From positions 4,401 to 36,400 of the forward strand of contig NZ_JBATWY010000099.1 of the NCBI RefSeq assembly GCF_049672945.1: a stretch of 32,000 nt of DNA, given 5' to 3'. Numbering within the stretch: position 1 is the stretch's first letter; each line of letters begins with the position of its first letter. Of this stretch, positions 11,312-30,260 are shown piece after piece. Source of the DNA: Haloferula sp. GTDB taxonomy: Bacteria; Verrucomicrobiota; Verrucomicrobiia; Verrucomicrobiales; Akkermansiaceae. The notes beneath the pieces were generated by a model that saw nothing but the letters and a program-made list of their open reading frames with translations, did not search any database and was not told the DNA's origin. The translations under genes were made by a program, and so were the position numbers.

Positions 11312-11350
11312 GTCTCGGCGAAAGCCTCTTGTTGGACAAAGTATGAACCA

Positions 11351-11380
11351 AAAACGGTCGCCTTCGGGCGGCCGTTTTTT
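11351..11380 (+). terminator. Rho-independent terminator of the carbonic anhydrase gene
   Basis: AAAACGGTCGCC-TTCG-GGCGGCCGTTTT hairpin with one G:U pair, followed by a TTTTTT run. Confidence 0.65.
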
Positions 11381-11405
11381 CTTACACGCATTGGGGGTTC
11401 CCGTC

Positions 11406-11508: not shown

Positions 11509-11717
11509 GGTGCCAGCAGCTGGTTACCGATCTTTGAACGGCGTGCCATTCGTCACCGTTCTCAAAATCTGGAGCCCGATCTACCATGATTGAGCGGATG
11601 ATTTCAGGATGTCGTGCCTTTCATCCTCCTCATCCAATTCATCTTGGTCCAAATCCCTACCCGCACCTCATTACCCTGGCCACCGCCACCACTTGGCCAC
11701 CCTAATCTTGGTAAACC

Positions 11718-12545
11718 CTACTGCTTTTCAAGGCGCTGCTTCAGCTCCTTCAGGGTTTTCTCCATGCTTTCCAGCAACTCCATGGCCTCATTCACCGGCA
11801 GCTTCGGATCGGGCAGCGTTGAGAGTTCCTGCATCGTCGAAACAATGATCCCAATGAAGAGATTCAGGATCGTGAATGTCGCGATGATGATGAAAGGCAC
11901 GAAAAATGCCCAAGCCCAGGGATGAACTTCCATGACTGGCCGGACGATCCCCATCGACCAACTCTCCAAGGTCATGATCTGAAAGAGGGAGTAAAGGCTG
12001 TGGCCAAGACTTCCGAACCACTGGGGATGACTCTCACCGAACAGCCCGGTCGCCAGCACCCCTGCGGTGTAGAAGAAAATCGCCATCACCGCGACCACTC
12101 CCAGCAAGCCGGGAATGGCATGAAGGAAAGCCGCCACGACACGCCGAAGCTGCGGAATCACCGTCAGCAAGCGCAGAACCCGGAGCACTCTCAGCGATCG
12201 CAGCACCGACCACGGCCCGATCCCCGGAACCAGCGCGATCCCCACCACGAGGAGATCGAAAATGTTCCAGCCATTCCGCCAAAACAAGCGGCGGTAGGCG
12301 AAGATCTTGATCGCCAACTCAAGGATGAAAAAAACCAGACAGGCTTTGTCGATCATCCTGAGGATCGTCCCGTGGCGCTCCATCATCGCCGCCGAGGTCT
12401 CGAATCCGAGAATGACGGCATTGATCAGGATCACCACCACCACCACCATCTGCATCCGTGAGCCATCAATCCACTCGGCCAAACGCAGACGTCCGCCCGA
12501 GACACCCGGGGAACCGCGCAAGGCAGCTAGGTCCTCTTCACTCAT
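11718..12545 (-). CDS. bacterial voltage-gated sodium channel (NaChBac/BacNaV family, single 6-TM domain)
   Basis: The S4 segment has Arg every third residue (LRSLRVLRVLRLLTVIPQLRR). The pore/selectivity filter LFQIMTLESWSMGIVRPV carries the NaChBac TLESW signature. There is a C-terminal coiled coil (ELLESMEKTLKELKQRLEKQ). The start is trimmed to the ATG at 12545 (MSEEDL..) so it does not overlap the upstream regulator gene. Confidence 0.9.
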   Translation of the reverse strand: MSEEDLAALRGSPGVSGGRLRLAEWIDGSRMQMVVVVVILINAVILGFETSAAMMERHGTILRMIDKACLVFFILELAIKIFAYRRLFWRNGWNIFDLLVVGIALVPGIGPWSVLRSLRVLRVLRLLTVIPQLRRVVAAFLHAIPGLLGVVAVMAIFFYTAGVLATGLFGESHPQWFGSLGHSLYSLFQIMTLESWSMGIVRPVMEVHPWAWAFFVPFIIIATFTILNLFIGIIVSTMQELSTLPDPKLPVNEAMELLESMEKTLKELKQRLEKQ

Positions 12546-12579
12546 CGACACCTGATCATTCGAATTTCCTGAGTCACGC

Positions 12580-12891
12580 TCAACCCAGGATTTCAAGCAA
12601 CTCGCCAATCGAATGGCGACTCTCCAACGGATGCCGGAAGCGGGCTTTGCGGTTGATGGTGTAGTGGTTTCGACGCCCATCCTTGCGCACTTTCAGCACC
12701 TTCTCTTCGATCAACTCCGCGAGAATCCTCTGCACCGCACGCTGGGTAATCCCCACTTCGTCCGCAAGGTCCCTGATCCGCATTGCCGGCTCACGATCCA
12801 GAACCACCAGGATATGGAAGTGATTGGTAAGAAAAGTCCATCCACTACCCACAGCAGGACTCGAAGATGCTCGCGATGATTTTTGTTGCAT
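12580..12891 (-). CDS. winged-helix transcriptional regulator (ArsR/MarR-like)
   Basis: MRIRDLADEVGITQRAVQRILAELIEEKVLKVRKDGRRNHYTI forms an HTH plus wing. The start is either the ATG at 12891 or the GTG at 12903. It lies 34 nt upstream of the channel gene on the same strand. Confidence 0.8.
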   Translation of the reverse strand: MQQKSSRASSSPAVGSGWTFLTNHFHILVVLDREPAMRIRDLADEVGITQRAVQRILAELIEEKVLKVRKDGRRNHYTINRKARFRHPLESRHSIGELLEILG

Positions 12892-12898
12892 GAATTTT

Positions 12899-12924
12899 AA
12901 CACACGATACTCCGGACGTGTGTT
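12899..12924. promoter_or_regulatory. candidate operator: perfect 8-bp inverted repeat in the divergent regulator/sbtA control region
   Basis: AACACACG-N10-CGTGTGTT sits in the ~90-bp gap between the winged-helix regulator start and the sbtA start. A regulatory function is inferred only. Confidence 0.3.
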
Positions 12925-12981
12925 GCTTAGCGCCGCTCATTTTGAAAGTCAAGCGGGCACCTCAGGCAATACCTGATCGCC

Positions 12982-13935
12982 GTGGACCTTCTCATTCAGA
13001 ATCTGATCTCTCCCGTCGTTCTTTCGTTCGTTCTTGGAATGCTCGCCCGATGGGTGAGAAGCGATCTGGAAATTCCGAGTGCCATCTACCAGGGGATGTC
13101 GATCTACCTGCTCTTTGCCATCGGCCTTAAAGGAGGCGTCTCCCTCTCGGAAACTCCAGTAAGCGAGCTCATCGCGCCTGCCGGACTGACGCTCGTGCTC
13201 GGTGCCCTCACCCCGCTGTCCGCCTTCTTCCTGCTCCGCAGCTTCGGCAAGTTGAGCCGGGTGGACGCCGCGGCGACCGCCGCTCACTACGGTTCGGTTT
13301 CGGCCGTGACCTTCATCGCCAGCCTCGAGGCGGTGAAACTCGCAGGCCTGCCCTCGAATGGATACCTCCCCGCCCTGCTGGCAGTCCTTGAGGTCCCCGG
13401 CATCATCATCGGCTTGCTCCTTGCGCGTCAATCGCGCGCCGGCGGATTGAAATCGGCCCTGCACGAAGTCGCCACCGGCAAGAGCATCTTCCTCATGGTC
13501 GGCGGACTGGTCATCGGAGCGGTCTGCGGAGCCACCAAGGTCGAAGGCGTGGCGCCCTTCTTCGTCACCCCGTTCAAAGGAGTGCTCTGCCTTTTCCTGC
13601 TCGAGCTTGGAATGGTCGCGGCGGGACGAATCGGCGACCTCAAGAGCGCCGGCTGGCGACTCATCGTCCTCGGATGCTTCCTTCCCATTTTCCATGGCAC
13701 CATCGCCACTTCTCTGGCCATGTGGATCGGCATGGCACCCGGCGGGGCGGCGGTTTTCGGAGCCATGGTCAGCAGCGCCTCCTACATCGCGGCACCAGCC
13801 GCCGTGCGTATCGCCTTGCCCCAGGCCAGTCCCGGGATCTATCTTACCCTCTCACTTGGAGTGACCTTTCCCTTCAATCTTGCGATCGGCATTCCCATCT
13901 ATCTCAAAGTCGCCGCTTACCTCTACCAGACATGA
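12982..13935 (+). CDS. sbtA: sodium-dependent bicarbonate transporter SbtA-family permease
   Basis: GTG start. It is polytopic, and MDLLIQNLISPVVLSFVLGMLARWVRSDLEIPSAIYQGMSIYLLFAIGLKGG is the typical SbtA N-terminus. It shows a two-fold internal repeat architecture. Its stop overlaps the sbtB start (ATGA). Confidence 0.9.
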   Translation: MDLLIQNLISPVVLSFVLGMLARWVRSDLEIPSAIYQGMSIYLLFAIGLKGGVSLSETPVSELIAPAGLTLVLGALTPLSAFFLLRSFGKLSRVDAAATAAHYGSVSAVTFIASLEAVKLAGLPSNGYLPALLAVLEVPGIIIGLLLARQSRAGGLKSALHEVATGKSIFLMVGGLVIGAVCGATKVEGVAPFFVTPFKGVLCLFLLELGMVAAGRIGDLKSAGWRLIVLGCFLPIFHGTIATSLAMWIGMAPGGAAVFGAMVSSASYIAAPAAVRIALPQASPGIYLTLSLGVTFPFNLAIGIPIYLKVAAYLYQT

Positions 13936-14249
13936 GCAAAAAGGTTTCACTCAAGCTCGTCACCATCGTCACCGAAGGTCTGCTTAAGGAAGAGTTCATG
14001 ACCCTGCTGCGCAAGCATGGAGCCACCGGCTTCACCATCACCCGCAGCGAAGGCGAAGGCTCGCGCGGAGCCAAGACCCGCGATTGGGAAGGTCCGAACC
14101 TCCGTTTTGAATGCATCGTTTCCGAAAAAACAGCGGACATCATCCTCGAGAATATCGGGAAGGTCTACTTTGAGAACTATTCGGTGATTGCCTGGATTAC
14201 CGACGTCACCGTTCTCCGGGGAAGCAAGTTTGTCGGAGACAGCGAGTAA
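13932..14249 (+). CDS. sbtB: PII-like signalling protein SbtB
   Basis: The ATG at 13932 gives MSKKVSLKLVTIVTEGLLKEEFMTLLRKHGATGFTITRSEGEGSRG..NLRFECIVSEKTADIILENIGKVYFENYSVIAWITDVTVLRGSKF. This aligns by eye with cyanobacterial SbtB (KLVIVTE..GA.GYT..G.GSR..FE..KYF..VL.G..F). It lacks the cyanobacterial C-terminal CGPEGC redox loop. The track ORF from 13674 overlaps sbtA out of frame and was trimmed. Confidence 0.85.
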   Translation: MSKKVSLKLVTIVTEGLLKEEFMTLLRKHGATGFTITRSEGEGSRGAKTRDWEGPNLRFECIVSEKTADIILENIGKVYFENYSVIAWITDVTVLRGSKFVGDSE

Positions 14250-14424
14250 GCTCGGCTCACCCGCTGGACTTTCCGGAAGCGGCGGCCGTCATCAGCCTCA
14301 CCAACTCAAGCAGCCCTTCGGTTTCGGACTCCCGTTTCCACACCGCCGAAGAGACCAGCGTCAGCTTCGGCTTGCTCATTTTGACAAACACGACCCCCGA
14401 GTGAGGCAGCAGGCTGACGTCGTG
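14079..14424. repeat. direct repeat copy A (~345 bp: functional sbtB 3' end + duplicated lysR 3' end)
   Basis: By hand alignment it matches 16154..16497 at an offset of 2075 then 2073 nt. Confidence 0.9.
14257..14424 (-). pseudogene. orphan 3' fragment of the LysR-family regulator gene (last 55 codons + stop)
   Basis: I count 3 mismatches in 168 nt against 16330..16497, of which 2 are synonymous and 1 gives G to S. It would encode HDVSLLPHSGVVFVKMSKPKLTLVSSAVWKRESETEGLLELVRLMTAAASGKSSG* and has no upstream part of the gene. Confidence 0.8.
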
Positions 14425-14490
14425 TTGCAAAGCACCATTTCACATTCGTTTCTTTCCAAATGCCGAGGGATTCGCTTTCCTACCACCATA

Positions 14491-16137
14491 ATGAAACGAC
14501 TTGTTCCGATGCTTTGCCTTTTCTTCGCTTGTCCAGGCTTTGCCAACGAGGCAGCCTTGCAGGCTCAACTCAAGGAACTTCAGAAAGTCACGGATGCTCT
14601 GGGAGAGCCGGATGCAGAGAACCAAAAGGAAGTCTACGCGGTCCAGATTGCCCGGTCGACGACCCAGTCTCTTGCGACGCAATTCTCCAGCGGCAACTTT
14701 CAATCAATGCAGGCGCAGATCCAACAGTCGTCATCACAACTTGCGGCACTTCCCAATGACTTCCGAAAGGCTTTGAATGCGTTCAACATCGAACTCGAAA
14801 AGCACTTGCAAGAGCTGAACGAGGCTCGAATCGAGGAACTCGAAGACTTCTTCGCGCGCCTGAGAGACGAAATCATCGCCGCGAAAAAGCCCGAAGACCT
14901 CGACCCACTCCTTGAGGAAATTTCGCAGCGATCCACAGACCGCAGCTACGGTTCAGGGAAGCTGAATCAGGAAATCTCAAATCTTCAGCAGAAGGTCTCC
15001 CAAAGTTCAGCCATCGTTTCCGAGTGGCAGAACTATCTCATGGCCGAAAGCATCAACGATGGCCCAGCCTGCAAAAGAGCTCTGGAGAATGTTTCACGCT
15101 ATCTAAGCTCCAACCCGCTAATTCCCCGCTCCCACGTGTTGCGACTCTTGAATCCCCAGGTCTCCGTTCCGGCACCAACACCGCCCAAACCCGAGAAAGG
15201 TGCTGATCCCACGTCGGCAGCCGACGCTGAGGCTTTTACTCCGTTTCCTGAAATCGAAAAGGCACTCGAACGCGGCGGCGATTGGAATGAAATCGCGAAG
15301 TTGCTCGCCGCGCTACCCCCAGCCCAACAAGCCGACCAACGGATCAGCGAGTTCCGAAGTGCCATCGAAAAACTCATCACCCTTTCTGCCTTGGATGAAG
15401 CGGTTTCGTTCCTCGAACTGATCGACGCCATCATAAATGCCAACGAGGAAGCATGGATCCTCAAAGGCACATCATTCCGCGCAGCACGGGACAGTTTCCT
15501 GATGAAGTCCCTCCAACGGCACTATGCCGAGACTTTGAAAAAGTCCGAGATCAAGGCCACTTCTCCGGCCCAACTTCTCGATCAGCTGACTTCCCATTAT
15601 TTGGATCTCCGCGAGTGGGCCTTGGCCTCAAAGGTGCTATCGGATCAGGAAGCCTTGGCCCGGCTTGATCGCTTCGGTAGTGAGCGGATCTACTCAAGCG
15701 ATGCAGAAGCCCTGAAGGCGCTCGCGCGAGCCGAGGCCGCCGCCTCGGCCGAAGAAATCGAGCTCGCGATCAAATACTATCGGCTCGCTGCGGAAAAGTC
15801 CTCCGACGCGCGGGTCTTCCGGGCCTCATTCGAGGGCCTCAAGGCCTTGAAGGAAACCAAGCCTGAGGCCTTTGAAAAGGCGGAAGAGGAAGCGAGAGAG
15901 GACGCGGCCATCCAACGGGCAAAGCGAAAAAGCTACCTCGTCCGCGACAGTCGCAATCGCTCGATGGAATCCATGGCACAGCAGGTGGGAAAAGATGGTG
16001 AGATCCCCGACAAGTTGAAGAATTACATCCAAAAATTGCTGAGAGACGAAATGCCCGACATTCGCATCAACTTCCTTGAGACCATACTCGATGAGTCCAG
16101 CGATACCACGACCCGCGAGGACAAGGCCGAGCACTAA
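14491..16137 (+). CDS. secreted, predominantly alpha-helical hypothetical protein (548 aa), no recognisable family
   Basis: The ATG at 14491 gives the signal peptide MKRLVPMLCLFFACPGFA/NEAALQ. The remainder is a long E/K/Q/A/L-rich helical or coiled-coil-like sequence with a Pro-rich linker (VPAPTPPKPEKGADP). Sampled lines are about 45-52% GC, against about 60-65% in the neighbours. The first 101 codons of the track ORF (from 14188) are antisense to the lysR fragment and were trimmed. Confidence 0.75.
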   Translation: MKRLVPMLCLFFACPGFANEAALQAQLKELQKVTDALGEPDAENQKEVYAVQIARSTTQSLATQFSSGNFQSMQAQIQQSSSQLAALPNDFRKALNAFNIELEKHLQELNEARIEELEDFFARLRDEIIAAKKPEDLDPLLEEISQRSTDRSYGSGKLNQEISNLQQKVSQSSAIVSEWQNYLMAESINDGPACKRALENVSRYLSSNPLIPRSHVLRLLNPQVSVPAPTPPKPEKGADPTSAADAEAFTPFPEIEKALERGGDWNEIAKLLAALPPAQQADQRISEFRSAIEKLITLSALDEAVSFLELIDAIINANEEAWILKGTSFRAARDSFLMKSLQRHYAETLKKSEIKATSPAQLLDQLTSHYLDLREWALASKVLSDQEALARLDRFGSERIYSSDAEALKALARAEAAASAEEIELAIKYYRLAAEKSSDARVFRASFEGLKALKETKPEAFEKAEEEAREDAAIQRAKRKSYLVRDSRNRSMESMAQQVGKDGEIPDKLKNYIQKLLRDEMPDIRINFLETILDESSDTTTREDKAEH

Positions 16138-19154: not shown

Positions 19155-19493
19155 TCACAAGGGAGGCTCGAGCTTGGGAAACTTGACCTTCTCTGAGTTG
19201 ATCGAAGCCAGCTGAATCGGAAACAGATGGATGCCGGAAGGATTCCTCTTCCCAGCCTTGACGACTGGATGCTCCGACGCAGCGACGTAACGCCTGGTCT
19301 TGTCATCCAGAAGCAGGATAAGCTTGTCGGACTGCCGGTAGTATCCGACCAGTGGAGGAACCTCCGAGTCTTTGCCGCCGCCCTTGATTCGAAATGGAGT
19401 GCAAGCCTCCCCATCAACCAGGGTTTGTGGATCGAACTCCGTCTCACAACGGTATTCTTTACTCGGACTCGCTCGCGAGAAACTCACCGCCAT
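19155..19493 (-). CDS. hypothetical protein, possibly a 5'-truncated gene remnant
   Basis: Residues from ..EYRCETEFDPQTLVDGEACTPFRIKGGGKDSEVPPLVGYYRQSDKLILLLDDKTRRYVAASEHPVVKAG.. look protein-like and sit in a lower-GC patch of about 50%. The only ATG (19493) lies inside the antisense of the ABC ATPase fragment, so the N-terminus is doubtful. Confidence 0.35.
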   Translation of the reverse strand: MAVSFSRASPSKEYRCETEFDPQTLVDGEACTPFRIKGGGKDSEVPPLVGYYRQSDKLILLLDDKTRRYVAASEHPVVKAGKRNPSGIHLFPIQLASINSEKVKFPKLEPPL

Positions 19494-19791
19494 GATCGTC
19501 ACCCACGATGTCGATGAAGCCGTCTTCATGGCCGACCGCTGCGTCATGATGTCGAATGGTCCCAAGGCCGGCGTCGGCGAGATCATGGAGATCGATTTCC
19601 CCCGCCCCCACGACCGCAAGGAAGTCTTCAACGATCCCGCCTTTTTCCAATACCGCGAACACCTCCTCGCCTTCCTCGAACAGCGCGCCCACCTCAATGG
19701 CGAGAACCGCATTCACAAGCGCAGCAATCTCATGGGATTCTGCGGCGGGGAGAAAACCAAAGCACCCGCCGCCTCCACCTCGGCCGCCTGA
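19459..19791 (+). pseudogene. 5'-truncated ABC transporter ATPase, NrtD/CmpD/CynD (nitrate/cyanate/bicarbonate, NitT/TauT) type
   Basis: LLGLAREKLTAMIVTHDVDEAVFMADRCVMMSNGPKAGVGEIMEIDFPRPHDRKEVFNDPAFFQYREHLLAFLEQRA covers the H-loop and C-terminal region of this ATPase subfamily. Walker A, the Q-loop, the LSGGQ signature and Walker B (about 150 or more residues) are absent upstream. Confidence 0.75.
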
Positions 19792-19876: not shown

Positions 19877-19888
19877 GCCAAGCTTGGC
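19877..19888. promoter_or_regulatory. perfect 12-bp palindrome upstream of the ATP-grasp operon (candidate operator)
   Basis: GCCAAGCTTGGC lies about 53 nt upstream of the ATG at 19941, in the 149-bp leader of the six-gene operon. A regulatory function is inferred only. Confidence 0.25.
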
Positions 19889-19940
19889 CCGCTCTGTGCT
19901 TGGACTCCTCCGAGCTCCCTTTGCAAAACCTAGATCCTGC

Positions 19941-21371
19941 ATGTTTGAAGGCTATACGACCGACGGATTCCACGACGAAATGTTCCTCCCAGACGGCTCC
20001 CCCCGCAAATACTGCGAAGGGCTTCTCGAACGTTTCCAGCACATCCCCGCCGAAGACTTCGATACCCGCCGAGCAGCCTGCGACAGCCATTTTCTGAGAC
20101 AAGGAGTCACCTTCAACGTCTACCACGACAACCAGGGCACCGAGCGCATTTTTCCCTTCGACCCGATGCCGCGGGTCATCCCTGCCGCGGAATGGGATCA
20201 CATCGAGACCGGCCTGACCCAGCGGATCACGGCGCTCAACCTCTTCCTCCACGATGTCTATCATGATCAACAGATCATCAAGGAAGGTGTCGTCCCCGCC
20301 CACCTGGTGGAAAACGCCGCCCACTACCGACCCGAGTTCCGAGGTATCGATGTCCCCGGTGATATCTACGTGCATATTTGCGGCACCGACCTCGTCCGCG
20401 GTGACGACGGCGAATACTACGTGCTCGAGGACAATGGACGCTGCCCTTCAGGTGCCTCCTACTTGTTGGAAAACCGCAACGCCCTGAAGCGCGCCTTCCC
20501 CGCCATCTTCGAGTCATCCGGCGTCCGCCCGGTCCAGTCCTATCCGACGGACCTGCTGGACATGCTTCACTACATCTCTCCGGGACGCGACATCGATCCG
20601 GTCTGCGTGCTTCTCACCCCGGGCGTCTTCAACAGCGCCTACTTCGAGCACTCCTACCTTGCCCGCCAGATGGGCATACCGATCGTCGAAGGACGGGACC
20701 TCGTTGTTAGAAACAGCTTTGTTTACATGCGGACGACCGAAGGTCTGGTCCGAGTCGACGTCATCTACCGCCGCATCGACGACGACTTCATCGACCCGCT
20801 CGTCTTCCGCAAGGACTCGGTCCTTGGCGTCCCCGGACTGATGGAGGCCTACCGTGCCGGTAATGTCGGACTCGCCAACGCCGTCGGAACCGGCGTCGCA
20901 GACGACAAGGCAATTTACCACTTCGTGCCCAAGATGATCGAGTTCTACCTCGGTCAGGAAGCCATCCTTCCCAACGTGCCCACTTATCTGGCCGTCGACG
21001 AAAAGGATCGGGAATACATCCTCGATCACCTTCCCGAATTGGTCGTCAAATCGACCAATGAATCGGGCGGCTACGGCATGCTGATGGGACCTTCCGCCAG
21101 CAAGGAGGAAGTCGAAGCCTTCAGAAAAAAGATCATCGAGGACCCCGGCAACTTCATCGCACAACCGGTGCTCGCCATTTCCCGCTGCCCGACCTGGACC
21201 GAAGAGGGCATGCAGGGCCGCCACGTCGATTTACGGCCTTACATCATTTACGGGCGCGAGATCAAGATCGTCCCGGGCGGCCTGACGCGCGTCGCACTGA
21301 AGAAAGGTTCGCTCGTCGTCAACTCATCCCAAGGAGGCGGCAGCAAGGACACCTGGGTTCTCAGTCATTGA
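19941..21371 (+). CDS. circularly permuted type-2 ATP-grasp protein (COG2308; former DUF404/DUF407)
   Basis: The ATG at 19941 gives MFEGYTTDGFHDEMFLPDGSPRKYCEGLLERF... Blocks such as RIFPFDPMPRVIPAAEWDHIETGLTQRITALNLFLHDVY, LVRGDDGEYYVLEDNGRCPSGASY, NAVGTGVADDKAIY, VVKSTNESGGYGM and LRPYIIYG match the family as I remember it. Confidence 0.92.
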   Translation: MFEGYTTDGFHDEMFLPDGSPRKYCEGLLERFQHIPAEDFDTRRAACDSHFLRQGVTFNVYHDNQGTERIFPFDPMPRVIPAAEWDHIETGLTQRITALNLFLHDVYHDQQIIKEGVVPAHLVENAAHYRPEFRGIDVPGDIYVHICGTDLVRGDDGEYYVLEDNGRCPSGASYLLENRNALKRAFPAIFESSGVRPVQSYPTDLLDMLHYISPGRDIDPVCVLLTPGVFNSAYFEHSYLARQMGIPIVEGRDLVVRNSFVYMRTTEGLVRVDVIYRRIDDDFIDPLVFRKDSVLGVPGLMEAYRAGNVGLANAVGTGVADDKAIYHFVPKMIEFYLGQEAILPNVPTYLAVDEKDREYILDHLPELVVKSTNESGGYGMLMGPSASKEEVEAFRKKIIEDPGNFIAQPVLAISRCPTWTEEGMQGRHVDLRPYIIYGREIKIVPGGLTRVALKKGSLVVNSSQGGGSKDTWVLSH

Positions 21372-21374
21372 ATC

Positions 21375-22415
21375 ATGCTATCCCGAGTCGCAAACGCCCT
21401 CTACTGGATGGTCCGCAACGTTGAGCGGGCCGACAACCTCGCGCGCATGCTCGAGGTCAACGAGCAACTCCTTCTTGATGTCGATCACATCGACCTCCCC
21501 CGCTTCGAGGCCTTCTGGCGGCCCATCGTGCAAAGCACCGGAGATGACACCCTCTTCGAAGAACTCTATCCCAAAGGCAGGAGTGCCGAGATCATCGAGT
21601 TCCTCTGCATCGACAAGGCGAACCCAAACAGTATCCGATCCTGCATCGGCCAGGCACGGGAAAACGCCCGTACTGTTAGAGACCAACTCTCCGAAGCGAT
21701 CTGGGAGGAACTCAACGGCCTCTTTCTCTTCCTCAACTCACCGGATGCGGATGCCTTGCTGAGCGCCAACCCGCAGCACTTCCACGAGACCATCCGCAAG
21801 TCGGCCAATGTCTTCAACGGCATCATCTCGTCCAACCTCAGCCGCGACAATGCCTGGGACTTCATGGAACTCGGGCGAAACATGGAACGTGCGGACAAGA
21901 TCACCCGCATCCTCGACTTCACGACCTTTCTGCCGAAAGAGGGCGCGGAAGCTTCTTTGATCGATCACCACTGGAACGCCACGCTGCGCGCCTGCGGTGC
22001 ACGCAGTTCGTTCCAGATCCGCTTCCGCAATCACCCAACACCGCAGAACATCATCGACTTCCTGATCTTTGATCGGAATTTCCCGCGCTCGGTTCGCTTC
22101 TGCATCGACTCCGCCGATGCCGCTCTGCACCGAATCTCAGGCAGCCAACGCGGATCGTTCTCCAACGAAGCCGAGCGGGCTTCAGGGCGCCTGCTCGCCT
22201 CGCTGGCCTACGGTTCCGTCGATGAGGTGTTGGAAACCGGACTCCATGATTATCTCGACGGCCTTCAGACCCAGTTCAATCGAATTGGTGATGAGATCTT
22301 CAGGGAATATGTCCTCTTGCCGGACTCTGATGAAAGCGTTCCACCCATCCCGGGAGAATCCATCTCCGCCGTGGTTGCCTGGCAGATCCAGCAGCAGCAA
22401 CAACAGCAGCAGTAG
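21375..22415 (+). CDS. alpha-E domain protein (COG2307; former DUF403) with C-terminal Gln8 tail
   Basis: It starts 3 nt after the ATP-grasp stop. MLSRVANALYWMVRNVERADNLARMLEV is the canonical alpha-E N-terminus. NAWDFMELGRNMERADKITRILD is the second conserved helix. It ends ..AWQIQQQQQQQQ*. Confidence 0.92.
   Translation: MLSRVANALYWMVRNVERADNLARMLEVNEQLLLDVDHIDLPRFEAFWRPIVQSTGDDTLFEELYPKGRSAEIIEFLCIDKANPNSIRSCIGQARENARTVRDQLSEAIWEELNGLFLFLNSPDADALLSANPQHFHETIRKSANVFNGIISSNLSRDNAWDFMELGRNMERADKITRILDFTTFLPKEGAEASLIDHHWNATLRACGARSSFQIRFRNHPTPQNIIDFLIFDRNFPRSVRFCIDSADAALHRISGSQRGSFSNEAERASGRLLASLAYGSVDEVLETGLHDYLDGLQTQFNRIGDEIFREYVLLPDSDESVPPIPGESISAVVAWQIQQQQQQQQ
22389..22412 (+). repeat. 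(CAG)3(CAA)2(CAG)3 trinucleotide tract encoding the terminal Gln8 of the alpha-E protein
   Basis: Read directly as cag cag cag caa caa cag cag cag tag. Confidence 0.95.
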
Positions 22416-22442
22416 CCTCCACATCCAAGAGGCCCAAGCGCA

Positions 22443-23297
22443 TTGAAGTCCAATCCACGATATCAAGTTCGGCATCGAACTTCGTTCCACTATGCCGCTC
22501 CGGTCAGTGACAGCGTCAATACGCTCCACCTGCACCCAACGACATTCCCCCTTCAGAAGACGATCTCTTGCTTCGTCCGGATAATCCCCGCCACTCGTCT
22601 TAGGTCCTTCCACGACCTCTTTGAAAACATCACCCATCACTTCGAGGTCCCTTCACTTCATCAGCGTCTCGAGGTCGAGAGCCTCCTCAAGGTCGAGAAC
22701 CTTCCCCTGACCCTGACCGACAAGGACAAGGCCGCCACGCTGGATGTCTACAGCGACGCCAAGATCACCGAAGCCATCTGGCCCTTCCTCCAACCCACCA
22801 CCTACGTCGCCTCGGATACCGAGATCTGGAGACAGGCCGTGGACCTGACCATAAAGAACGAGACGGTTCTCGAAAAAGCCCAGAGCATCATGAGCTGGCT
22901 CCATACGAATCTGATCTACGACCAAACTTCGACCAAGGTCAGCTCACGCATCGACGAAGTTTTCGCCCAGCGCTCCGGCGTTTGTCAGGATTTCACCCAT
23001 CTCATGCTGGGATTGTGTCGCTCGATCGGCATTCCGGCCCGCTACGCCTCCGGATACCTCTACAATGGCCCCTCGGACACCCTCGTCGGCTCCCAGGCCT
23101 CCCACGCGTGGGTCGAAATCCACCTTCCCGAGAGCGGGTGGATCGGGCTCGATCCGACCAACAATACCTTTGCGGATGAACGGTTCATAAAGATTGCCGT
23201 GGGCCGGGATTATGACGATGTCGCCCCGATCAAAGGTCAGTATTCCGGAACCGCCAGCTGTCGAATGGAGGTTGACGTTGCCGTCACTCATCTCTAG
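22443..23297 (+). CDS. transglutaminase-like cysteine peptidase family protein (Bact_transglu_N + transglutaminase core; COG1305)
   Basis: TTG start with no in-frame ATG nearby. The N-terminus YQVRHRTSFHYAAPVSDSVNTLHLHP is Bact_transglu_N-like. The catalytic triad contexts are GVCQDFTHL (Cys), SHAWVEIHL (His) and GLDPTN (Asp). Confidence 0.9.
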   Translation: MKSNPRYQVRHRTSFHYAAPVSDSVNTLHLHPTTFPLQKTISCFVRIIPATRLRSFHDLFENITHHFEVPSLHQRLEVESLLKVENLPLTLTDKDKAATLDVYSDAKITEAIWPFLQPTTYVASDTEIWRQAVDLTIKNETVLEKAQSIMSWLHTNLIYDQTSTKVSSRIDEVFAQRSGVCQDFTHLMLGLCRSIGIPARYASGYLYNGPSDTLVGSQASHAWVEIHLPESGWIGLDPTNNTFADERFIKIAVGRDYDDVAPIKGQYSGTASCRMEVDVAVTHL

Positions 23298-23368
23298 CGC
23301 GTCCCTGTAAACATCCTCGCCGCTTTGGCCCAGCCTGAGCTAAACGTATCCCACTCCTTCTGCCGGTC

Positions 23369-26300
23369 ATGTCGATCCACTGCTCGCTTCACCACCTCAC
23401 CGCCTACAAGTATTCCAAGCCCGTCCAGCTTGGCCCTCAGGTCATCCGCCTTCGCCCCGCCACCCATTCGCGCACGGAAGTTCCCTCCTACTCGCTGAAG
23501 ATCACGCCGGAGAAGCACTTCATCAACTGGCAGCAGGACCCCCAAGGCAACTTCCTCGCTCGCGTCGTCTTCCCGGAAGCCGTCCGCGAATTCTCGATCG
23601 AGGTCGACCTCATCGCCAACTTGGCAACCATCAACCCCTTCGACTTCTTCCTCGATGAATACGCCCAGCATTTCCCTTTCGATTATAGCGAAGAACTGAC
23701 CACCGACCTCGAACCCTATCTCGTCAAGGAAGTCCGCGGTCCGAAAATGAGGGAGTTCCTCACCAAGGTCCCGATCACCCACGGCATGGAAGCCAACGCC
23801 TTCATGGTCGCAGTCAACAACTACGTCCATCAGGCCGTCGGCTACACCATCCGCATGGAACCGGGTGTTCAAAGCACCGAGGAGACCCTCACCAAACGCA
23901 CCGGATCCTGTCGCGACTCGGCCTGGCTGCTGGTCCAGGTCATGCGCCGGCTCGGCATCGCCGCGCGCTTCTGCTCCGGCTATTTGATCCAACTGAAGGC
24001 CGACCAGAAACCCGTCGACGGCGGCGCGGAAGGTCCCTCCGAAGACTTCACCGACCTCCACGCTTGGACGGAAATCTTCCTCCCCGGCGCAGGCTGGGTC
24101 GGACTCGATCCCACTTCCGGCCTTCTCACGGGTGAAGGCCACATCCCCCTCTGCGCCGCCGCCCACTACCGCAATGCCGCCCCGATCTCGGGCTCCCTTT
24201 CGATGTCCGACGACACCGAGACCGATTTCGAATTCGACATGAAGGTCGAACGCATCCGCGAAACGCCGCGTGTCACCCTCCCCTACACCCCGGAGCAGAC
24301 CGCTGAGATCGAGAAGCTGGGACAGGCCATCGACAAGAAGCTCAAAAAGCAGGACATGCGCCTGACCATGGGCGGCGAACCGACTTTTGTCTCGGCCACC
24401 GACATGGAGGCCCCCGAGTGGAACACCGACGCGCTCGGGCCGACCAAGGAGCTCTACGCGGATCAACTCCTCCACCGACTCTACAAGAAATTCTCCCCCG
24501 GTGGATTCCTGCACCACGGTCAGGGCAAATGGTATCCTGGCGAACCGCTCCCCCGCTGGTCATTCACTTCTTATTGGCGGCACGACGGGACACCCGTGTG
24601 GAACGACCAATCCCTTTTCGCCGACCATCGCGTCGACTATGGATATGGTAGCAAGGAATCCGAAGCCTTCATCAAGCTGCTCGCCAAGAACCTCGACATC
24701 TCCCCTGATTTCATTCGTGCCGGCTACGAGGACATCTTCTACTACATGTGGAAGGAAAGGCGTCTGCCGATGAACGTCACCGTCGAGAATCCGAAGCTCG
24801 CCGACAAACTCGAACGGGAAACCATCAGCAAGGTCTTCGAACAGGGCCTCGGCTCACCCGTTGGCCACCTTCTTCCCATCGCCCGTGGCGTGAGTCCCGA
24901 GGAATGGATCACCGGACCCTGGTTCCTGCGCGGCGAGGAACTCTATCTTGCTCCCGGCAATCACCCGATGGGCTATCGCCTGCCGATGGACGGCCTCCCC
25001 TGGGCCGAGCGGATCGATCAGCCGATCCTCGAACCCTACGACCCCTCGATCCCCCGCGACCCCTTTCCAGCCGAAAGAATCCTGCCACCAGCCCTCCGTC
25101 AGCCAAACCCGGTCTCGGCCATGGCGACCACCATTCGCGGGCAGTATCAGGGCGATCCGCGCGGCGAAGACCCACGCCGCACCAGCTCCAAACAACGCCA
25201 GGACGCCCTCGCCGAACCTCAGGTCGGGAAATCCGCCTCCGGACAGGTCCGCACCGGCCTTTCGGTCGAGCCGCGCGACGGACGACTCCACGTCTTCATG
25301 CCACCACTGGTCAAGGCCGACGCCTATCTCGAACTCGTCGGTGCCTTGGAGGAAACCGCCAAGTCGCTTGGCACCCCGATCCGGATCGAGGGCTACAAGC
25401 CGCCCTCCGACCCACGGCTCAATTCCTTCTCGGTCACACCCGACCCCGGTGTCATCGAAGTCAACATCCACCCATCGAAGACCTGGAACGAAATCGTCTC
25501 GAAGAACAAGGTCATCTACGAGGAAGCTCGTAATATCGGACTCGGCACCGAGAAGTTCATGGAAGACGGCCGCCATTCCGGAACCGGCGGCGGAAACCAC
25601 ATCGTGGTCGGAGGCGACACCCCGCTCGATTCCCCCTTCCTGCGCCGGCCGCACCTGCTGCCCTCGCTGATCACCTACTTCAACAACCACCCGTCCCTCT
25701 CCTATCTCTTCTCGGGACTCTTCATCGGACCGACTTCACAGGCTCCCCGCCTCGATGAAGCCCGCCATGAAACGCTCTACGAACTGGAGACCGCCTTCTC
25801 GGCGCTGCCGAAGGGCGACACCACGCTCGACCACTCCCAGTGGCTCGTCGACCGCATCCTGCGCAACCACCTGGTCGACATGACCGGCAACACCCACCGT
25901 GCCGAGATCTGCCTCGACAAGCTCTACTCTCCGGACAGCACCACCGGCCGCCTCGGACTCCTCGAGATGCGGGGCTTTGAAATGCCACCCCATCCTGAAA
26001 TGGCGCTCGCCCAGCAGCTCCTGATCCGCGGACTGCTGTCGCGATTCTGGGACAACCCCTACACCGCCAAACCCGTCCGCTGGGGCACCTCGATTCACGA
26101 CAAGTGGATGCTGCCCCACTTCATCAAGGACGACATGGAGGACATCGTCACCGACCTGCGTGCCAACGATCTGCCCTTCGACGCCGCCTGGTTCGAACCC
26201 CATCACGAGTTCCGCTTCCCTCTGGTCGGCGAGTACGACCAACGCAACCTCCACCTCGAACTCCGCCAGGCGATCGAACCATGGCATGTGCTCGGTGAAG

Positions 26301-26761
26301 AGCAATCGAGCAGCGGAACCTCCCGCTACGTCGATTCCTCGGTCGAACGCCTCCAGCTCAAGGTCAGCGGCTTCACCGACTCTCGCCACCAGGTGACCTG
26401 CAATGGCGTTTCCGTCCCGCTTCACCCGACCGGCCGTCAGGGCGAATACATCGCCGGCATCCGCTACCGCGCCTGGGACCCCTACTCCGCCCTCCACCCG
26501 ACCCTGCCGATCAACTCGCCGCTCACCTTCGATGTCGTCGATACCTGGAACCAACGCTCGGTTGGCGGCTGCAAGTACCACGTCGTCCATCCCGGTGGAC
26601 GCGCTTATGACGATTTCCCGCTGAATGCCTTTGTCGCCGAAAGCCGTCGCCGTTCGCGATTTTTCACGATCAATCGCTCGCCAGGCAAGCTCGACCCTCC
26701 GGCACCAAAAATCGACCGCGAGTACCCCATGACCCTCGACCTTCAGCGATACCCTGCCTAG
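23369..26761 (+). CDS. large transglutaminase-family protein with DUF2126-type C-terminal region (COG4196-like, 1130 aa)
   Basis: [62 protein letters not shown] is a Bact_transglu_N domain. The core is [28 protein letters not shown], then [22 protein letters not shown]. A conserved extension of about 800 aa follows (..[12 protein letters not shown].., ..[10 protein letters not shown].., ..[13 protein letters not shown].., ..[12 protein letters not shown]..), typical of DUF2126. Confidence 0.92.
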   Translation: [1130 protein letters not shown]

Positions 26762-26814
26762 GGTCCCCGCACGTTCCACTCCGGAGGCCCGGCCAAAGAA
26801 CGCATCGCCACGTG

Positions 26815-29370
26815 ATGCCCCAGCAGCAAGCCCAGTCTCAAGTTCCCGCAGCCGCCGACTCCGGCGGGCTTTTCGGCGCGTATGTGCCGGGCACCGGGGT
26901 GTTCGACGAGTTCCGCGACCAGCGCCTCGGCACCGAGTCGCCATGGAAGGATTTCGCCAAACGCATCAATGACTTCGGCTCCGAAGGACTCACCAACTCG
27001 TGGAAACGCGGCGAGGACATGCTGCGGGAAAACGGCATCGCCCACAATCTCCTCTCCGGCGAATCCGAGGAAAGCGTCCGACGCTGGGATCTCGATCCCC
27101 TCCCGATGCTCATTTCCGAAACGGAGTGGGCTTCGCTCTCCAAAGGCGTCATCCAGCGAGCCAAACTCTGGGACCTCATTCTTCACGACTGCTACGGGAA
27201 CCAGAACCTGCTGACCAGCGGCATCCTCCCCCCTTCCGTGCTCTTTTCCCAACCGGGATACGTCCGTTCGCTCCGCGGTCTGCCGAAACCAGATAGACCC
27301 CTGCTTTCCCTGTATGCCGTCGATGTTGCCCGCGATCCCAATGGCAACTGGACGGTCATCGCCGACCGGACCGAAACTCCCAACGGCATGGGATTCGCCC
27401 TCGAAAACCGGATCGTCCTCTCGAACGTCTTTCCCGAAACGTCGAAGAAACTGCATCTGGTCCGCCTCGCCAGCTTCTTTCAGGAACTCCGCAGCACCCT
27501 CGTTTCGCTCGCCTCCTCCGCCGTTGATACGCCAAGCGTCGTACTTCTCTCACCAGGACCGGGCGACAAAACCTATTTCGAAGACGCCTTCCTCACCCGC
27601 TACCTCGGCATCACCCTCGCCGTCGGCAGCGAACTGACCGTCCGCAACGACCGTCTCTTTCTCAAGACCGTCCGTGGACTCCAGCGGGTGCACGTCCTGA
27701 TCCGGCGCGTTCCGGATGGCGATGCCGATCCGCTCGAAATGCCGACCTCCAACCTCGTTGGCATCCCCGGCCTGATGCAGGCGATCCGCTCCGGCACCGT
27801 CGCGGTCATCAACCCACCGGGCACCGCCATCGCTGAAGCGCCCGCATTCCTTCCCTTTCTGCCGGCCATTTCCCGCCACTTCACCGGCGAAGAGCTGCTC
27901 ATCCCATCGATCGAAACCCACTGGAACCGAGCCGGCGGCAACGTCGAAACCCTGCTCACCTCGGGTTCCGCCGTCGTCAAGAGCGCCTTCACCCGAAACC
28001 TCTTCCCTCCAGCGCTCACCCGCTCACTTGATCAAGCCCAGCTCGATCAGCTCCGCCAGAAAATCACCAGGAACCCCGAGCAGTTCGTGGTCCAGCGCGA
28101 GATGCCCTTCTCCACCGCTCCGGTGTGGAATGGCAGTTCGATCGAAGCCAGACCCGTCGCGGTCCGGCTCTTCGTCTTTGCCAACGGCGACGACTACCGC
28201 GTGATGCCCGGCGGACTTGTGCGCAGCGCTTCCCGCTCGGACACTCTCCCGGGTCTCTCCCTTCACGAAAACACCAGCAGCAAGGACCTCTGGGTTCTCG
28301 GCAATCCCGCCAATCCTCCCCGTGTCACTTCAAACCTGACCCACCGGGTCGCCATTCGTCGAGGCCGCGGCAATCTCTCAAGTCACTCAGCCGACAACAT
28401 GCTCTGGATCGGCCGCTACTCGGAACGCTCCGAGTCCGCCACCCGCGTCCTGCTTGAAATCGTCCTGACGGCGGTCGACGAGGACTCCTCTTCGGACCTG
28501 CTTCCCGTCCAACCCCTTCTTCACGCCCTGTCGAAGCTGGACTACCTGGACGAATCAGACGTCGCGAAGTTCTCCGGCGACTTCGACCGCCTGTCACTGC
28601 TCAGGCTCATCAACTCCATTTACTACAAACCTAGTAAAAAACGACCACCGCATCTCGACTCGATCCCTGACAACCTCGGCCGCCTGAGATCGCTTGCCGC
28701 TCTTTCACGGGACCGCTTGTCCAACGAAACCTGGAGGATCGTACAAAACCTGGAGAAGATCGGCCATGGTCTGCAACCGAGATCCCTCTCCGGCCTGCGC
28801 GCACCGCTGCAACAGGCCATCCTCCTCCATTCGGCCTTCAACGGCACCTGCCGCGAAAACCTTACCCGCACGGAGAGCTGGCGTTTCCTCAACATCGGCC
28901 GCCGGCTCGAACGCTGTTCGTGGCTGCTGACCCTCGTGGAGCAGGTCCTCAGCGACCACCGCCTGCCACCCTCGGCCATCCTCGATGCGCTGCTTTCGGT
29001 CACCGACTGCACCATGACCTACCGCTTCCGCTACCAAGGGGCGCCCCAGCCCCTTCCAGCGCTCGATCTCGTGCTCTTCGACCCTGCCAACCCCCGCGGC
29101 CTCGCCTACCAGCTCGCGGACCTCGACCAGAATCTCTCGGAGCTCCCGCAAACCAACGATGAACGCATCATCCGCCCGGCCCATCGCACCATTCTCCGGG
29201 CTCTTCACTTCGTCCAAACCGAGCTACTCCAGGCACACGATGAAAAATCCGAAGCCGTGAACCTGAAACGAGTCCAAACCTTCGTCACGGACCTGCGCAA
29301 GAATCTCCCCACAGTCGCTGAGCAGCTCGGCTGGGAATTCTTCACCCACGCCTCCTACACCGCTACCTGA
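26815..29370 (+). CDS. fusion protein: circularly permuted ATP-grasp (N-terminal ~480 aa) + alpha-E domain (C-terminal ~330 aa)
   Basis: The N-terminal half is paralogous to 19941..21371 (RRWDLDPLPMLISETEWASLSKGVIQRAKLWDLILHDCY; NGNWTVIADRTETPNGMGF; NPPGTAIAEAPAF). The C-terminal half is paralogous to 21375..22415 (HSADNMLWIGRYSERSESATRVLLEIV; ESWRFLNIGRRLERCSWLLTLV). I prefer the ATG at 26815; a GTG at 26812 is also possible. Confidence 0.9.
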   Translation: MPQQQAQSQVPAAADSGGLFGAYVPGTGVFDEFRDQRLGTESPWKDFAKRINDFGSEGLTNSWKRGEDMLRENGIAHNLLSGESEESVRRWDLDPLPMLISETEWASLSKGVIQRAKLWDLILHDCYGNQNLLTSGILPPSVLFSQPGYVRSLRGLPKPDRPLLSLYAVDVARDPNGNWTVIADRTETPNGMGFALENRIVLSNVFPETSKKLHLVRLASFFQELRSTLVSLASSAVDTPSVVLLSPGPGDKTYFEDAFLTRYLGITLAVGSELTVRNDRLFLKTVRGLQRVHVLIRRVPDGDADPLEMPTSNLVGIPGLMQAIRSGTVAVINPPGTAIAEAPAFLPFLPAISRHFTGEELLIPSIETHWNRAGGNVETLLTSGSAVVKSAFTRNLFPPALTRSLDQAQLDQLRQKITRNPEQFVVQREMPFSTAPVWNGSSIEARPVAVRLFVFANGDDYRVMPGGLVRSASRSDTLPGLSLHENTSSKDLWVLGNPANPPRVTSNLTHRVAIRRGRGNLSSHSADNMLWIGRYSERSESATRVLLEIVLTAVDEDSSSDLLPVQPLLHALSKLDYLDESDVAKFSGDFDRLSLLRLINSIYYKPSKKRPPHLDSIPDNLGRLRSLAALSRDRLSNETWRIVQNLEKIGHGLQPRSLSGLRAPLQQAILLHSAFNGTCRENLTRTESWRFLNIGRRLERCSWLLTLVEQVLSDHRLPPSAILDALLSVTDCTMTYRFRYQGAPQPLPALDLVLFDPANPRGLAYQLADLDQNLSELPQTNDERIIRPAHRTILRALHFVQTELLQAHDEKSEAVNLKRVQTFVTDLRKNLPTVAEQLGWEFFTHASYTAT

Positions 29371-29372
29371 TC

Positions 29373-30260
29373 GTGCGCTATTCCATCCATCACCGCACCG
29401 TCTACCGCTACGAGGACAATGTCTCGTACTCGCATCATCTTGCACGGCTCACACCACTTGAGACCCCGGTTCAGAACCATATTTCATCGCGGATCGTCGT
29501 CACTCCCGCACCCGATATCCTGACCTCGCACCGCGACTACTTCAACAACCCGACCAGCTTCTTCTCTCTCGCCTCGCCGCATCAGGAACTCGTCATCGAC
29601 AGCCACTCCGAAGTGGTCATCGCCCACTCCCCCGCCAACACGCTCGACTTGTCGCCCGCTTGGGAGATCGTCCGCGACCAGGTCCGGCGATCCACGATTT
29701 CGGCCGATCTCGCGGCGGCGGAATTCTGTTTCGCCTCCCCGCTCTGCCCGGTTCTGCCGGACCTTGTCGCCTACACGCTCGAGTCCTTCCGCCCGGGGAC
29801 CCCGATCCTTCAGGCCACCACCGACCTGACAAGGCGGATCCACGAGGACTTCTCCTTCGACAACTCCGCCACCACCGTCACCACCCCGGTGAGCGAGGTT
29901 TTCGCCAAACGAGCCGGAGTCTGTCAGGACTTCGCCCACCTCCAGATCTCGTGCCTGCGCTCCCTCGGGCTGCCGGCGCGCTATGTCTCCGGCTACATCC
30001 GCACCGATCCACCTCCCGGAAAACCGAGACTCATCGGTGCCGACGCCTCTCACGCCTGGATTTCCCTCTACGTCCCCCAGCTCGGCTGGACGGACTTTGA
30101 TGCCACCAACAACATCATCCCCACCACCAATCACATCTGGGTGGCACACGGTCGCGATTACCACGACATCTGCCCGATTCGGGGCACGGTTTATGGCGGT
30201 GGCACCCAGACGCTCGCAATCGGGGTCACGGTCACGCCGCTTGAGTCGGCTTCATCGTGA
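29373..30260 (+). CDS. transglutaminase-like cysteine peptidase family protein (Bact_transglu_N + core), second copy
   Basis: The GTG start lies 2 nt after the previous stop. It begins MRYSIHHRTVYRYEDNVSYSHHLARLTP. The triad contexts are GVCQDFAHL, SHAWISLYV and DFDATN. Confidence 0.9.
   Translation: MRYSIHHRTVYRYEDNVSYSHHLARLTPLETPVQNHISSRIVVTPAPDILTSHRDYFNNPTSFFSLASPHQELVIDSHSEVVIAHSPANTLDLSPAWEIVRDQVRRSTISADLAAAEFCFASPLCPVLPDLVAYTLESFRPGTPILQATTDLTRRIHEDFSFDNSATTVTTPVSEVFAKRAGVCQDFAHLQISCLRSLGLPARYVSGYIRTDPPPGKPRLIGADASHAWISLYVPQLGWTDFDATNNIIPTTNHIWVAHGRDYHDICPIRGTVYGGGTQTLAIGVTVTPLESASS

Follow-up and report, generated by a model that had tools for sequence, protein, structure and literature searches.

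A predicted six-gene ATP-grasp/Alpha-E/transglutaminase-like/DUF2126 operon behind a sigma-54-type promoter element in Haloferula sp.

We analyzed a 32,000-nt stretch of DNA from Haloferula sp. (NCBI RefSeq assembly GCF_049672945.1, contig NZ_JBATWY010000099.1, positions 4,401 to 36,400 of the forward strand; hereafter, the window), which encompasses six closely spaced genes, g1-g6, encoding circularly permuted (CP) ATP-grasp, Alpha-E, transglutaminase (TGase)-like and DUF2126 proteins. With moderate confidence, we interpret these genes as a single transcription unit representing an Anbu-less, two-set version of the CP-ATP-grasp/Alpha-E/TGase-like/DUF2126 amidoligase system, which would run an amide-bond cycle during nitrogen starvation. 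The operon is not new as a kind: the families, their association, the split and fused forms of Alpha-E and the link to Anbu are already described (in 2008-2009, as recounted in later papers), and the gene order in the window is a clade-specific variant. What our analysis adds is a sigma-54 signal that extends across phyla, a transporter context in Haloferula, and glutamine (Gln)-rich termini on two of the proteins. The features concerned are listed here by window coordinates and strand.

19941..21371 (+): g1, stand-alone circularly permuted ATP-grasp ligase, 476 aa, domain at aa 77-452 (Pfam)
21375..22415 (+): g2, stand-alone Alpha-E protein, 346 aa (Pfam)
22443..23297 (+): g3, small transglutaminase-fold protein, 284 aa, C181/H221/D237 (Pfam)
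23369..26761 (+): g4, TGase-like module (aa 1 to ~280) fused to DUF2126 (aa 282-1125, nt 24212-26743), 1130 aa (Pfam)
26815..29370 (+): g5, fused CP-ATP-grasp (aa 97-472) and Alpha-E (aa 521-843), Rv2567 family, 851 aa (Pfam)
29373..30260 (+): g6, second small transglutaminase-fold protein, 295 aa, C184/H227/D243 (Pfam)
19885..19900 (+): sigma-54-type -24/-12 element TGGCCCGCTCTGTGCT, a pattern match 41 nt before the g1 ATG
22389..22412 (+): Gln8 C-terminal tail of g2 (aa 339-346), encoded by mixed CAG and CAA codons
26815..26841 (+): Gln-rich N-terminus of g5, MPQQQAQSQ, read from the sequence

The window's list of open reading frames (ORFs) contains all six genes on the + strand at 19941-30260, as originally predicted, with gaps of 3, 27, 71, 53 and 2 nt from g1 to g6; the fourth gap, previously given as about 50 nt, is 50 nt if the GTG at 26812 is taken as the start of g5. 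Because the gaps are short and a window scan found no terminator-like site in any of them, we treat the genes as a single operon. Sigma-70 promoter and terminator matches across the window were no more numerous than in shuffled sequence, and none fell within an intergenic gap. The ATG at 19941 is favored over the TTG at 19884 as the start of g1, given that orthologues align from residue 1. The TTG start of g3 is preceded at a distance of 10 nt by the ribosome-binding site AAGAGG. An independent gene call agrees on g5 (851 aa) and g6 (295 aa), and a Haloferula sp. assembly has annotated proteins that match g4 and g5 at 100% identity. The closest genomes are those of an uncultured Haloferula and H. 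chungangensis, with a g4 identity of 92%. An Rfam search of the whole window found no family, glycine riboswitch included, and therefore we place no riboswitch before the operon.

To put the operon in context, we scanned a collection of one genome per species, obtained 533 candidate stretches, 522 of them with a gene for a g4 relative, and analyzed the best 80 loci, a sample skewed to the Planctomycetota-Verrucomicrobiota group and Betaproteobacteria. The element TGGCCCGCTCTGTGCT is not significant on its own, with 3 pattern matches in the window against 1.9 expected. What makes it convincing is its conservation in relatives together with the enrichment of the motif at the starts of the clusters. 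When the window is compared with loci L001-L003 of the Haloferula clade, this block is the one conserved stretch in an otherwise diverged spacer upstream of g1, with the GG and GC kept and the bases between them varying. Among the sampled loci, a sigma-54 motif is present within 300 nt upstream of 19/40 g1 orthologues (47%) and 25/77 g4 orthologues (32%), mostly at -33 to -65, compared to 0/42 for g2, 2/58 for g5, 5/61 for g6, and 23/742 (3%) for control ORFs from the same loci. In the Dechloromonas/Azonexus group (L025, L029, L034, L046, L047), each cluster has two such elements, TGGCAyGGAAnCTGCT ahead of g1 (-33) and TGGTTCGnnTnTTGCT ahead of g4 (-51), and would therefore consist of two co-regulated transcription units, whereas the window appears to have one.

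By analogy, the sigma-54 element fits the NtrC/sigma-54 control under nitrogen limitation that has been published for homologous clusters. In P. putida, PP_2686-2688, part of the PP_2685-2688 operon, are 11-37-fold up under nitrogen limitation, a response assigned to NtrBC (PMC7801951, PMC3325844, PMC8050072), and B. cenocepacia I35_5080-5083 are among the strongest sigma-54/NtrC targets, with log2 changes of -6 to -9.4 (PMC5491218). A Bradyrhizobium CP_ATPgrasp gene is preceded by a predicted RpoN site, and across marine metagenomes these domains vary in abundance together with urea-metabolism domains (PMC3597751). Since the clusters lie behind sigma-54 promoters in several phyla, nitrogen limitation, rather than general stress, would be the relevant condition. 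The original prediction had treated the function of the operon as a blank. This holds for the substrate, none having been assigned to the system in the literature up to 2026 (the 2017 Anbu structure papers report no function), but the regulatory context was missed, and with a sigma-54 promoter and published nitrogen-limitation control of homologues, the function is less of a blank than claimed.

The genomic neighborhood of the operon in Haloferula includes a nitrate-type ATP-binding cassette (ABC) transporter. In H. chungangensis (L003 2336-7346), the transporter is complete, comprising an NMT1_2 binding protein, a permease and two ATPases above the TIGR01184 cut-off, and ends 123 nt before g1. 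In H. rosea (L006 8375-21267), an operon for the same type of transporter is interrupted by g4-g5-g6, with the binding-protein gene on one side and the TauE/permease/ATPase genes on the other, and g1-g3 were not found within 10 kb of g4-g5-g6. In the window, the last ~105 codons of a nitrate-type transporter ATPase (19471-19791, +) directly precede the operon and are themselves preceded by unrelated genes for a LysR regulator, a pirin and an FMN reductase. Comparison of this remnant with the full set in H. chungangensis indicates that the transporter was lost or rearranged in the window genome.

Gene order across the sampled loci shows which parts of the operon belong together. On the same strand, g5 and g6 follow g4 in 59/66 evaluable loci, with g6 directly after g5 in 55/66, and g1-g2 lie upstream of the g4 set in 34/65 loci. 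The arrangement is common to at least five phyla, with examples in Verrucomicrobiota, Planctomycetota, Betaproteobacteria, Desulfobacterota and Sumerlaeota, and the exact gene order of the window was seen among the 80 loci only in the Haloferula clade (L001-L004). The g3-type gene is found between g2 and g4 only in this clade, follows g6 in subdivision-3 Verrucomicrobia, and is absent in most other lineages. The conserved units are thus g1-g2 and g4-g5-g6, with g3 and Anbu optional and g3 a movable accessory, and their linkage in many phyla identifies them as the same system as the “Anbu operon”. Of the 3+3 design envisaged originally, the two linked sets are borne out but the equal triples are not, the conserved units being 2+3. 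The same counts, with the fused form beside g4 and the split pair upstream, uphold the proposal that the split and fused ATP-grasp/Alpha-E pairs would act as one enzyme.

In the closest relative, L001, a 5.3-kb insert of three opposite-strand ORFs (288, 1039 and 294 aa; 4750-9617, -) lies between g3 and g4, such that the six-gene operon is split there; the 1039-aa ORF had no Pfam or NCBIfam match.

These data bear on the alternative that g1-g3 and g4-g6 are two independent neighboring modules with different substrates and roles. That about half of the loci have g4-g5-g6 but no g1-g2 in the vicinity, and that separate sigma-54 motifs precede g1 and g4 in Dechloromonas and Azonexus, would be expected under this scenario. 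We nevertheless consider it very unlikely: the same-strand adjacency recurs in at least five phyla, the gap between g3 and g4 in the window is only 71 nt and contains no promoter or terminator match, and the separate promoters, where present, share the sigma-54 type.

Anbu genes were detected in 4/80 loci. In two betaproteobacterial loci (L020 608-1321; L034 8781-9494), Anbu lies between g2 and g4, the slot occupied by g3 in the window; in L054 (20281-21015), it ends the order g4-g5-g6-g1-g2-TGase-Anbu; and in L027 (20757-21479, -), it is located beside a second, oppositely oriented Alpha-E/TGase set. A tblastn search of the window with the L054 Anbu returned nothing at E<=10. When the flanking ORFs of the 80 loci were clustered, none emerged as an additional partner shared across phyla; the best cluster (12/81 loci) was a generic ABC ATPase. 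No small conserved ORF that could encode a tag or precursor was found in the operon gaps or flanks, or across the 80 loci. Thus, the earlier statement that the operon has no Anbu gene and no precursor ORF in its gaps, which are too short for one, is sustained. Given this lack of conserved partner genes, the substrate is expected to be something that every cell has or the operon's own proteins. A graspetide-type cluster, in which the ATP-grasp protein would modify a ribosomally synthesized and post-translationally modified peptide, was rejected as there is no precursor gene, with gaps of 2-71 nt and no conserved small ORF in the 80 loci.

Profile searches against Pfam recovered every domain that had been predicted for the six proteins: CP_ATPgrasp_2 (PF14403, E 5e-167) and PF04174 (E 1e-149) in g1; Alpha-E (PF04168, E 1e-89) in g2; Bact_transglu_N (PF08379) and Transglut_core (PF01841) in g3 and g6; these same two domains plus full-length DUF2126 (PF09899, 1258 bits) in g4; and CP_ATPgrasp_2 (E 3e-121) together with Alpha-E within a single g5 polypeptide. 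NCBIfam yielded no match for any of the six, although a g5 homologue (P0133) carries the NCBI name “uncharacterized protein Rv2567”. The paralogues are strongly diverged, with 29% identity between g1 and the N-terminal half of g5, 24% between g2 and the C-terminal half of g5, and 33% between g3 and g6, in keeping, along with the arrangement common to several phyla, with the old two-set design inferred previously.

Both types of ATP-grasp proteins retain a common core. The g1-type and g5-type families share 48 positions that are at least 95% conserved, most of the charged ones included, among them R153, D164, R179, E236, R277, R278, D285, N313, R432, R450 and D470, and because of this shared set, neither family looks like a dead copy. 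A Yersinia homologue of these ATP-grasp proteins releases phosphate from ATP (PMC6376114). In Alpha-E, two Glu-Arg motifs (E17-R18 and E171-R172 in g2) are kept in the stand-alone and fused forms, and W11, R14, E17, R18, R24, R102, E171 and R172 are at least 90% conserved in 103 sequences of both forms.

We further explored the fold of g5 using an AlphaFold2 model (predicted local distance difference test score (pLDDT) 85.7; predicted template modeling (TM) score 0.81). The top Foldseek match was 3N6X, with a target-normalised TM-score of 0.86, followed by eukaryotic-type glutathione and homoglutathione synthetases (0.6-0.65), glutathionylspermidine synthetase, and E. coli YgiC/YjfC. Foldseek found no PDB neighbor for the Alpha-E half of the model. 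Sequence identity of g5 to characterized glutathione synthetase-type enzymes is 11-14%. The likeness is at the level of the fold only and no NCBIfam equivalog matched, and we accordingly rejected the identification of g1 or g5 as a glutathione or glutathionylspermidine synthetase proper.

The same structural matches raise the alternative that the product of the operon is a small metabolite of gamma-glutamyl or peptide type, for instance a thiol resembling glutathione, a conjugated polyamine or a compatible solute. The ligases would attach the building blocks one after another, and the TGase-like enzymes would trim or recycle the product. Besides the glutathione-type synthetases and YgiC/YjfC at the top of the list, the deposition of 3N6X as a “putative glutathionylspermidine synthase” and the presence of three ligase domains per operon are compatible with such a role. 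We regard it as quite unlikely, however, because equivalog matches are missing from NCBIfam, genes for precursor supply or export are not conserved nearby, and three thiol enzymes, equal in number to the ligases, would be odd for a purely biosynthetic path. In addition, M. tuberculosis Rv2411c and Rv2567 were negative in one metabolite assay, a 2026 preprint in which they were tested as negative candidates only and made no gamma-aminobutyric acid (GABA)-trehalose.

The three TGase cores have the Cys, His and Asp contexts quoted in the original prediction, namely, GVCQD/HAW/DPT in g3, GSCRD/HAW/DPT in g4 and GVCQD/HAW/DAT in g6, and these are kept in nearly all orthologues. The g3-type triad is intact in 15/15 sequences; among g6-type sequences, Cys is present in 63/64 and His and Asp in 64/64; and the g4-type triad is found in 81/81, with Asp in 78/81 and gaps in the other three. 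Conservation of g4 as a whole is high, with ~55% identity between phyla, a large share of its 1130 residues invariant in a 54-sequence alignment, and at least 8000 homologues at E <= 1e-10. In the AlphaFold2 model of g4 (pLDDT 73.9), the N-terminal part matched 3ISR, a C. hutchinsonii “putative cysteine protease” (E 4e-12), and P. aeruginosa TgpA, and the DUF2126 part gave repeated weak matches to glutamine synthetase (E 0.02-0.2, ~290 columns). A profile of 54 g4 homologues compared with PDB sequences matched in the TGase part only, with no solved relative of DUF2126. These weak but consistent model matches agree with the published prediction that DUF2126 is a glutamine synthetase-like amidoligase, without proving it.

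Taken together, our preferred interpretation, the nitrogen-starvation amide-bond cycle, can be laid out in four steps. First, under nitrogen limitation, an NtrC-type activator would fire the sigma-54 promoter at 19885-19900, so that all six genes are made. Second, the g1-g2 pair and g5 would function as ligases like glutathione synthetase and glutathionylspermidine synthetase, whose fold they have: a carboxylate, probably of a peptide or gamma-glutamyl type, would be converted to an acyl-phosphate and joined to an amine, with Alpha-E and its conserved Glu-Arg motifs as the obligate helical partner. Third, the DUF2126 part of g4 may be another ligase, a glutamine synthetase-like ATP-dependent carboxylate-amine or carboxylate-ammonia enzyme, for which the fold evidence is weak but consistent. 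Fourth, g3, g6 and the N-terminal module of g4, with their intact triads, are likely Cys-His-Asp thiol enzymes that would cleave or transfer Gln or gamma-glutamyl-type amide bonds, releasing ammonia or an amine. The net outcome would be an ATP-driven cycle of making and breaking amide bonds on a ubiquitous substrate, which scavenges or re-allocates nitrogen during starvation. This substrate would be either a widely shared metabolite or proteins of the cell itself, with the Gln-rich ends of g2 and g5 as possible examples.

Several points weigh against this interpretation. The transporter linkage is not maintained in the window, where only the 3' remnant is left. A five-sequence alignment contained no conserved block upstream of the promoter that would correspond to an NtrC-type inverted repeat or activator site, the window showed neither a sigma-54 gene nor one for an NtrC-like activator, and an exact match to the sigma-54 motif is missing from about half of the orthologous clusters. 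Sigma-54 promoters also serve functions unrelated to nitrogen. The case for rpoN/ntrC-dependent induction is built on the homologous clusters of P. putida and B. cenocepacia, not on this organism, and would carry over to it by analogy. As for the chemistry, the likeness of DUF2126 to glutamine synthetase is weak (Foldseek E 0.02-0.2; nothing by sequence profile), and the second to fourth steps are modeled by analogy, given that no member of the system has a known substrate, product or phenotype. Finally, pull-down experiments with the operon proteins of Yersinia yielded no stable complexes, and Anbu showed no activity (PMC6376114).

The Gln-rich termini are, judging from the sequences, retained as a compositional feature in Planctomycetota-Verrucomicrobiota relatives. 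Tails of g2 orthologues run from Q7 to Q10 in the Haloferula clade, are fixed as MVQQEEQQQQ in subdivision-3 Verrucomicrobia, and are of the QSQSQS type in Planctomycetota; betaproteobacterial g2 orthologues have no such tail. Many g2-type tails have a conserved Trp or Met-Val ahead of the Gln run (W-Q-x-Qn). Of 134 stand-alone Alpha-E sequences, each representing one 50%-identity cluster, 31 have Q as their last residue and 15 have a QQQ end; the Gln content is 14.1% in the last 15 aa, compared with 4.0% in the body. The controls, 120 homologues each of g4 and g5, included none with a QQQ end (0/120 each) or at least four Q in the last 15 aa (0/120 each), and only 2-3/120 ended in a single Q. 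At the other end of g5, no alternative start codon occurs between MPQQQAQSQ and the conserved core. The pattern Q[STAQ]Q appears in the first 20 aa of 27/39 close g5 homologues, as opposed to 0/116 and 0/146 in controls, and Gln accounts for 16.7% of the first 20 aa of these 39 proteins but 3.7% of the body.

Thus, both ligase units have a flexible Gln-rich end, and each is followed by a gene for a TGase-fold protein. Transglutaminases cross-link proteins at Gln residues (PMC6376114). We view this juxtaposition of Gln-rich ends and TGase-fold genes as a lead rather than as a result. It is conceivable that g3 and g6 have built-in substrates in the Gln-rich ends of g2 and g5, with deamidation or Gln-Lys cross-linking serving to switch or assemble the ligases, a proposal to which we assign a small chance. 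If true, this would be a self-modifying enzyme machine controlled by nitrogen starvation, and the first case of Bact_transglu_N-type proteins with an assigned protein substrate. A lesser option is a RimK/LysW-like model in which the C-terminal carboxylate at the end of the g2 tail would be the substrate of the ATP-grasp enzyme, but this leaves the N-terminal Gln-rich segment of g5 unexplained. We make no claim of a link between the Q-tail and the presence of g3; their co-occurrence is confounded by phylogeny, being confined to two clades.

Gln-rich ends also recall the C-terminal Gln of Pup, which is deamidated before ligation, and thereby bring up a different alternative, pupylation-like tagging of proteins or peptides. 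Here, the ligases would couple an amino acid or a peptide to target proteins as a tag, the TGase-like enzymes, along with Anbu where present, would remove the tag or degrade the tagged target, and nitrogen starvation would drive amino-acid recycling. The prediction of the CP-ATP-grasp/Alpha-E/TGase/DUF2126 amidoligase system is reportedly due to Iyer et al. (2009), who are also said to have proposed protein or peptide tagging. This alternative gains from the glutamine synthetase-like ligase, as in PafA and Dop, from the proteasome-like peptidase associated with some loci, from the lack of small-molecule pathway partners or transporters conserved across phyla, and from induction by nitrogen limitation, which fits raised protein turnover. 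Yet the window lacks a gene for a small tag, as well as Anbu, no tag gene is conserved in the 80 loci, and the closest characterized structural relatives of the ATP-grasp proteins use small peptides and amines. Moreover, Anbu was found to have no peptidase activity and to form no complexes with other operon proteins (PMC6376114). On balance, we judge tagging rather unlikely. Tagging and metabolite synthesis are both compatible with nitrogen control and differ in the substrate only.

Antiphage defense, or another kind of conflict, was considered as well, as TGase-like and ATP-grasp domains are known from some conflict systems. However, PADLOC returned no match for any of the six proteins, and for this reason the defense reading was dropped. 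It also sits poorly with genes that are chromosomal, housekeeping-like and highly conserved (~55% identity across phyla), with an operon base composition like that of the rest of the window and no different from its surroundings, and with the nitrogen regulation of homologues. We consider a role in defense extremely improbable.

Farther upstream in the window, a group of + strand genes (10292-14249) encodes a carbonic anhydrase (10292-11311), the Na+-dependent bicarbonate transporter SbtA (12946-13935) and, at ~13950-14249, a PII-like protein of the SbtB type; among them, a gene for an ion channel (11718-12680) runs the other way. This group looks like an inorganic-carbon uptake set of a verrucomicrobium. 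It is followed by a 649-aa ORF without a Pfam match (14188-16137, +) and preceded by genes for the glycine cleavage P and T proteins (5402-8272, -; 8655-9764, -).

The system to which the operon belongs is widespread, with at least 8000 g4 homologues, a g4 relative in nearly all of the candidate stretches scanned, and representation in M. tuberculosis, and its chemistry has been a matter of prediction since 2009. Comparative work of the kind presented here narrows the search for the substrate by pointing to nitrogen limitation as the condition, to a ubiquitous or self substrate, and to Gln-rich termini located beside putatively Gln-directed thiol enzymes. If the system is indeed a nitrogen-recycling device, it would constitute a new branch of the bacterial nitrogen-stress response.

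Among known systems, the closest is the “Anbu operon” of Proteobacteria, Cyanobacteria and Cytophaga (COG2308/COG2307/COG1305/Anbu; for example, P. putida PP_2685-2688 and Y. bercovieri), which comprises the same three families in the same order as g1-g2-g3. Induction of the P. putida operon under nitrogen limitation, assigned to NtrBC, agrees with the presence of the sigma-54 element in the window. Compared with it, the window lacks Anbu, which is frequent but not universal there, and has a second, diverged set, g4-g6, attached. The B. cenocepacia H111 cluster I35_5080-5083 (BCAM1233-1236) encodes DUF404/407, DUF403, TGase-like and large TGase-like proteins, in the order of g1-g2-g3-g4; the published description (PMC5491218) includes no fused ATP-grasp/Alpha-E gene and no second small TGase. 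Going by its description, the large TGase-like protein of this cluster would contain DUF2126. In M. tuberculosis, Rv2411c (CP ATP-grasp) and Rv2567 (fused ATP-grasp/Alpha-E) belong to the same Pfam families as the window proteins. In strain H37Rv, the Rv2411c and Rv2567 sets presumably occupy separate loci.

At the level of individual enzymes, g3, g4 and g6 have the Cys-His-Asp set in common with Gln-acting transglutaminase-fold enzymes, and Bact_transglu_N-type proteins may hydrolyze, deamidate or cross-link. Protein-glutaminase is one transglutaminase-fold enzyme that acts on protein-bound Gln. Eukaryotic-type glutathione synthetase, glutathionylspermidine synthetase, YgiC/YjfC and 3N6X share, according to the model, the fold of the window ligases, implying formation of an acyl-phosphate and then of an amide, but the window ligases differ from these enzymes in having an obligatory Alpha-E partner that lacks a solved relative. 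With Pup/PafA/Dop, the shared features would be a glutamine synthetase-like ligase fold, the link to a proteasome-like peptidase in some genomes, and a Gln terminus that possibly needs deamidation. In contrast to that system, the window encodes no small tag protein; in place of Dop it has ligases of the ATP-grasp type and thiol enzymes with a TGase fold, and its Gln-rich segments are carried by enzymes of 346 and 851 aa, in one case at the N-terminus.

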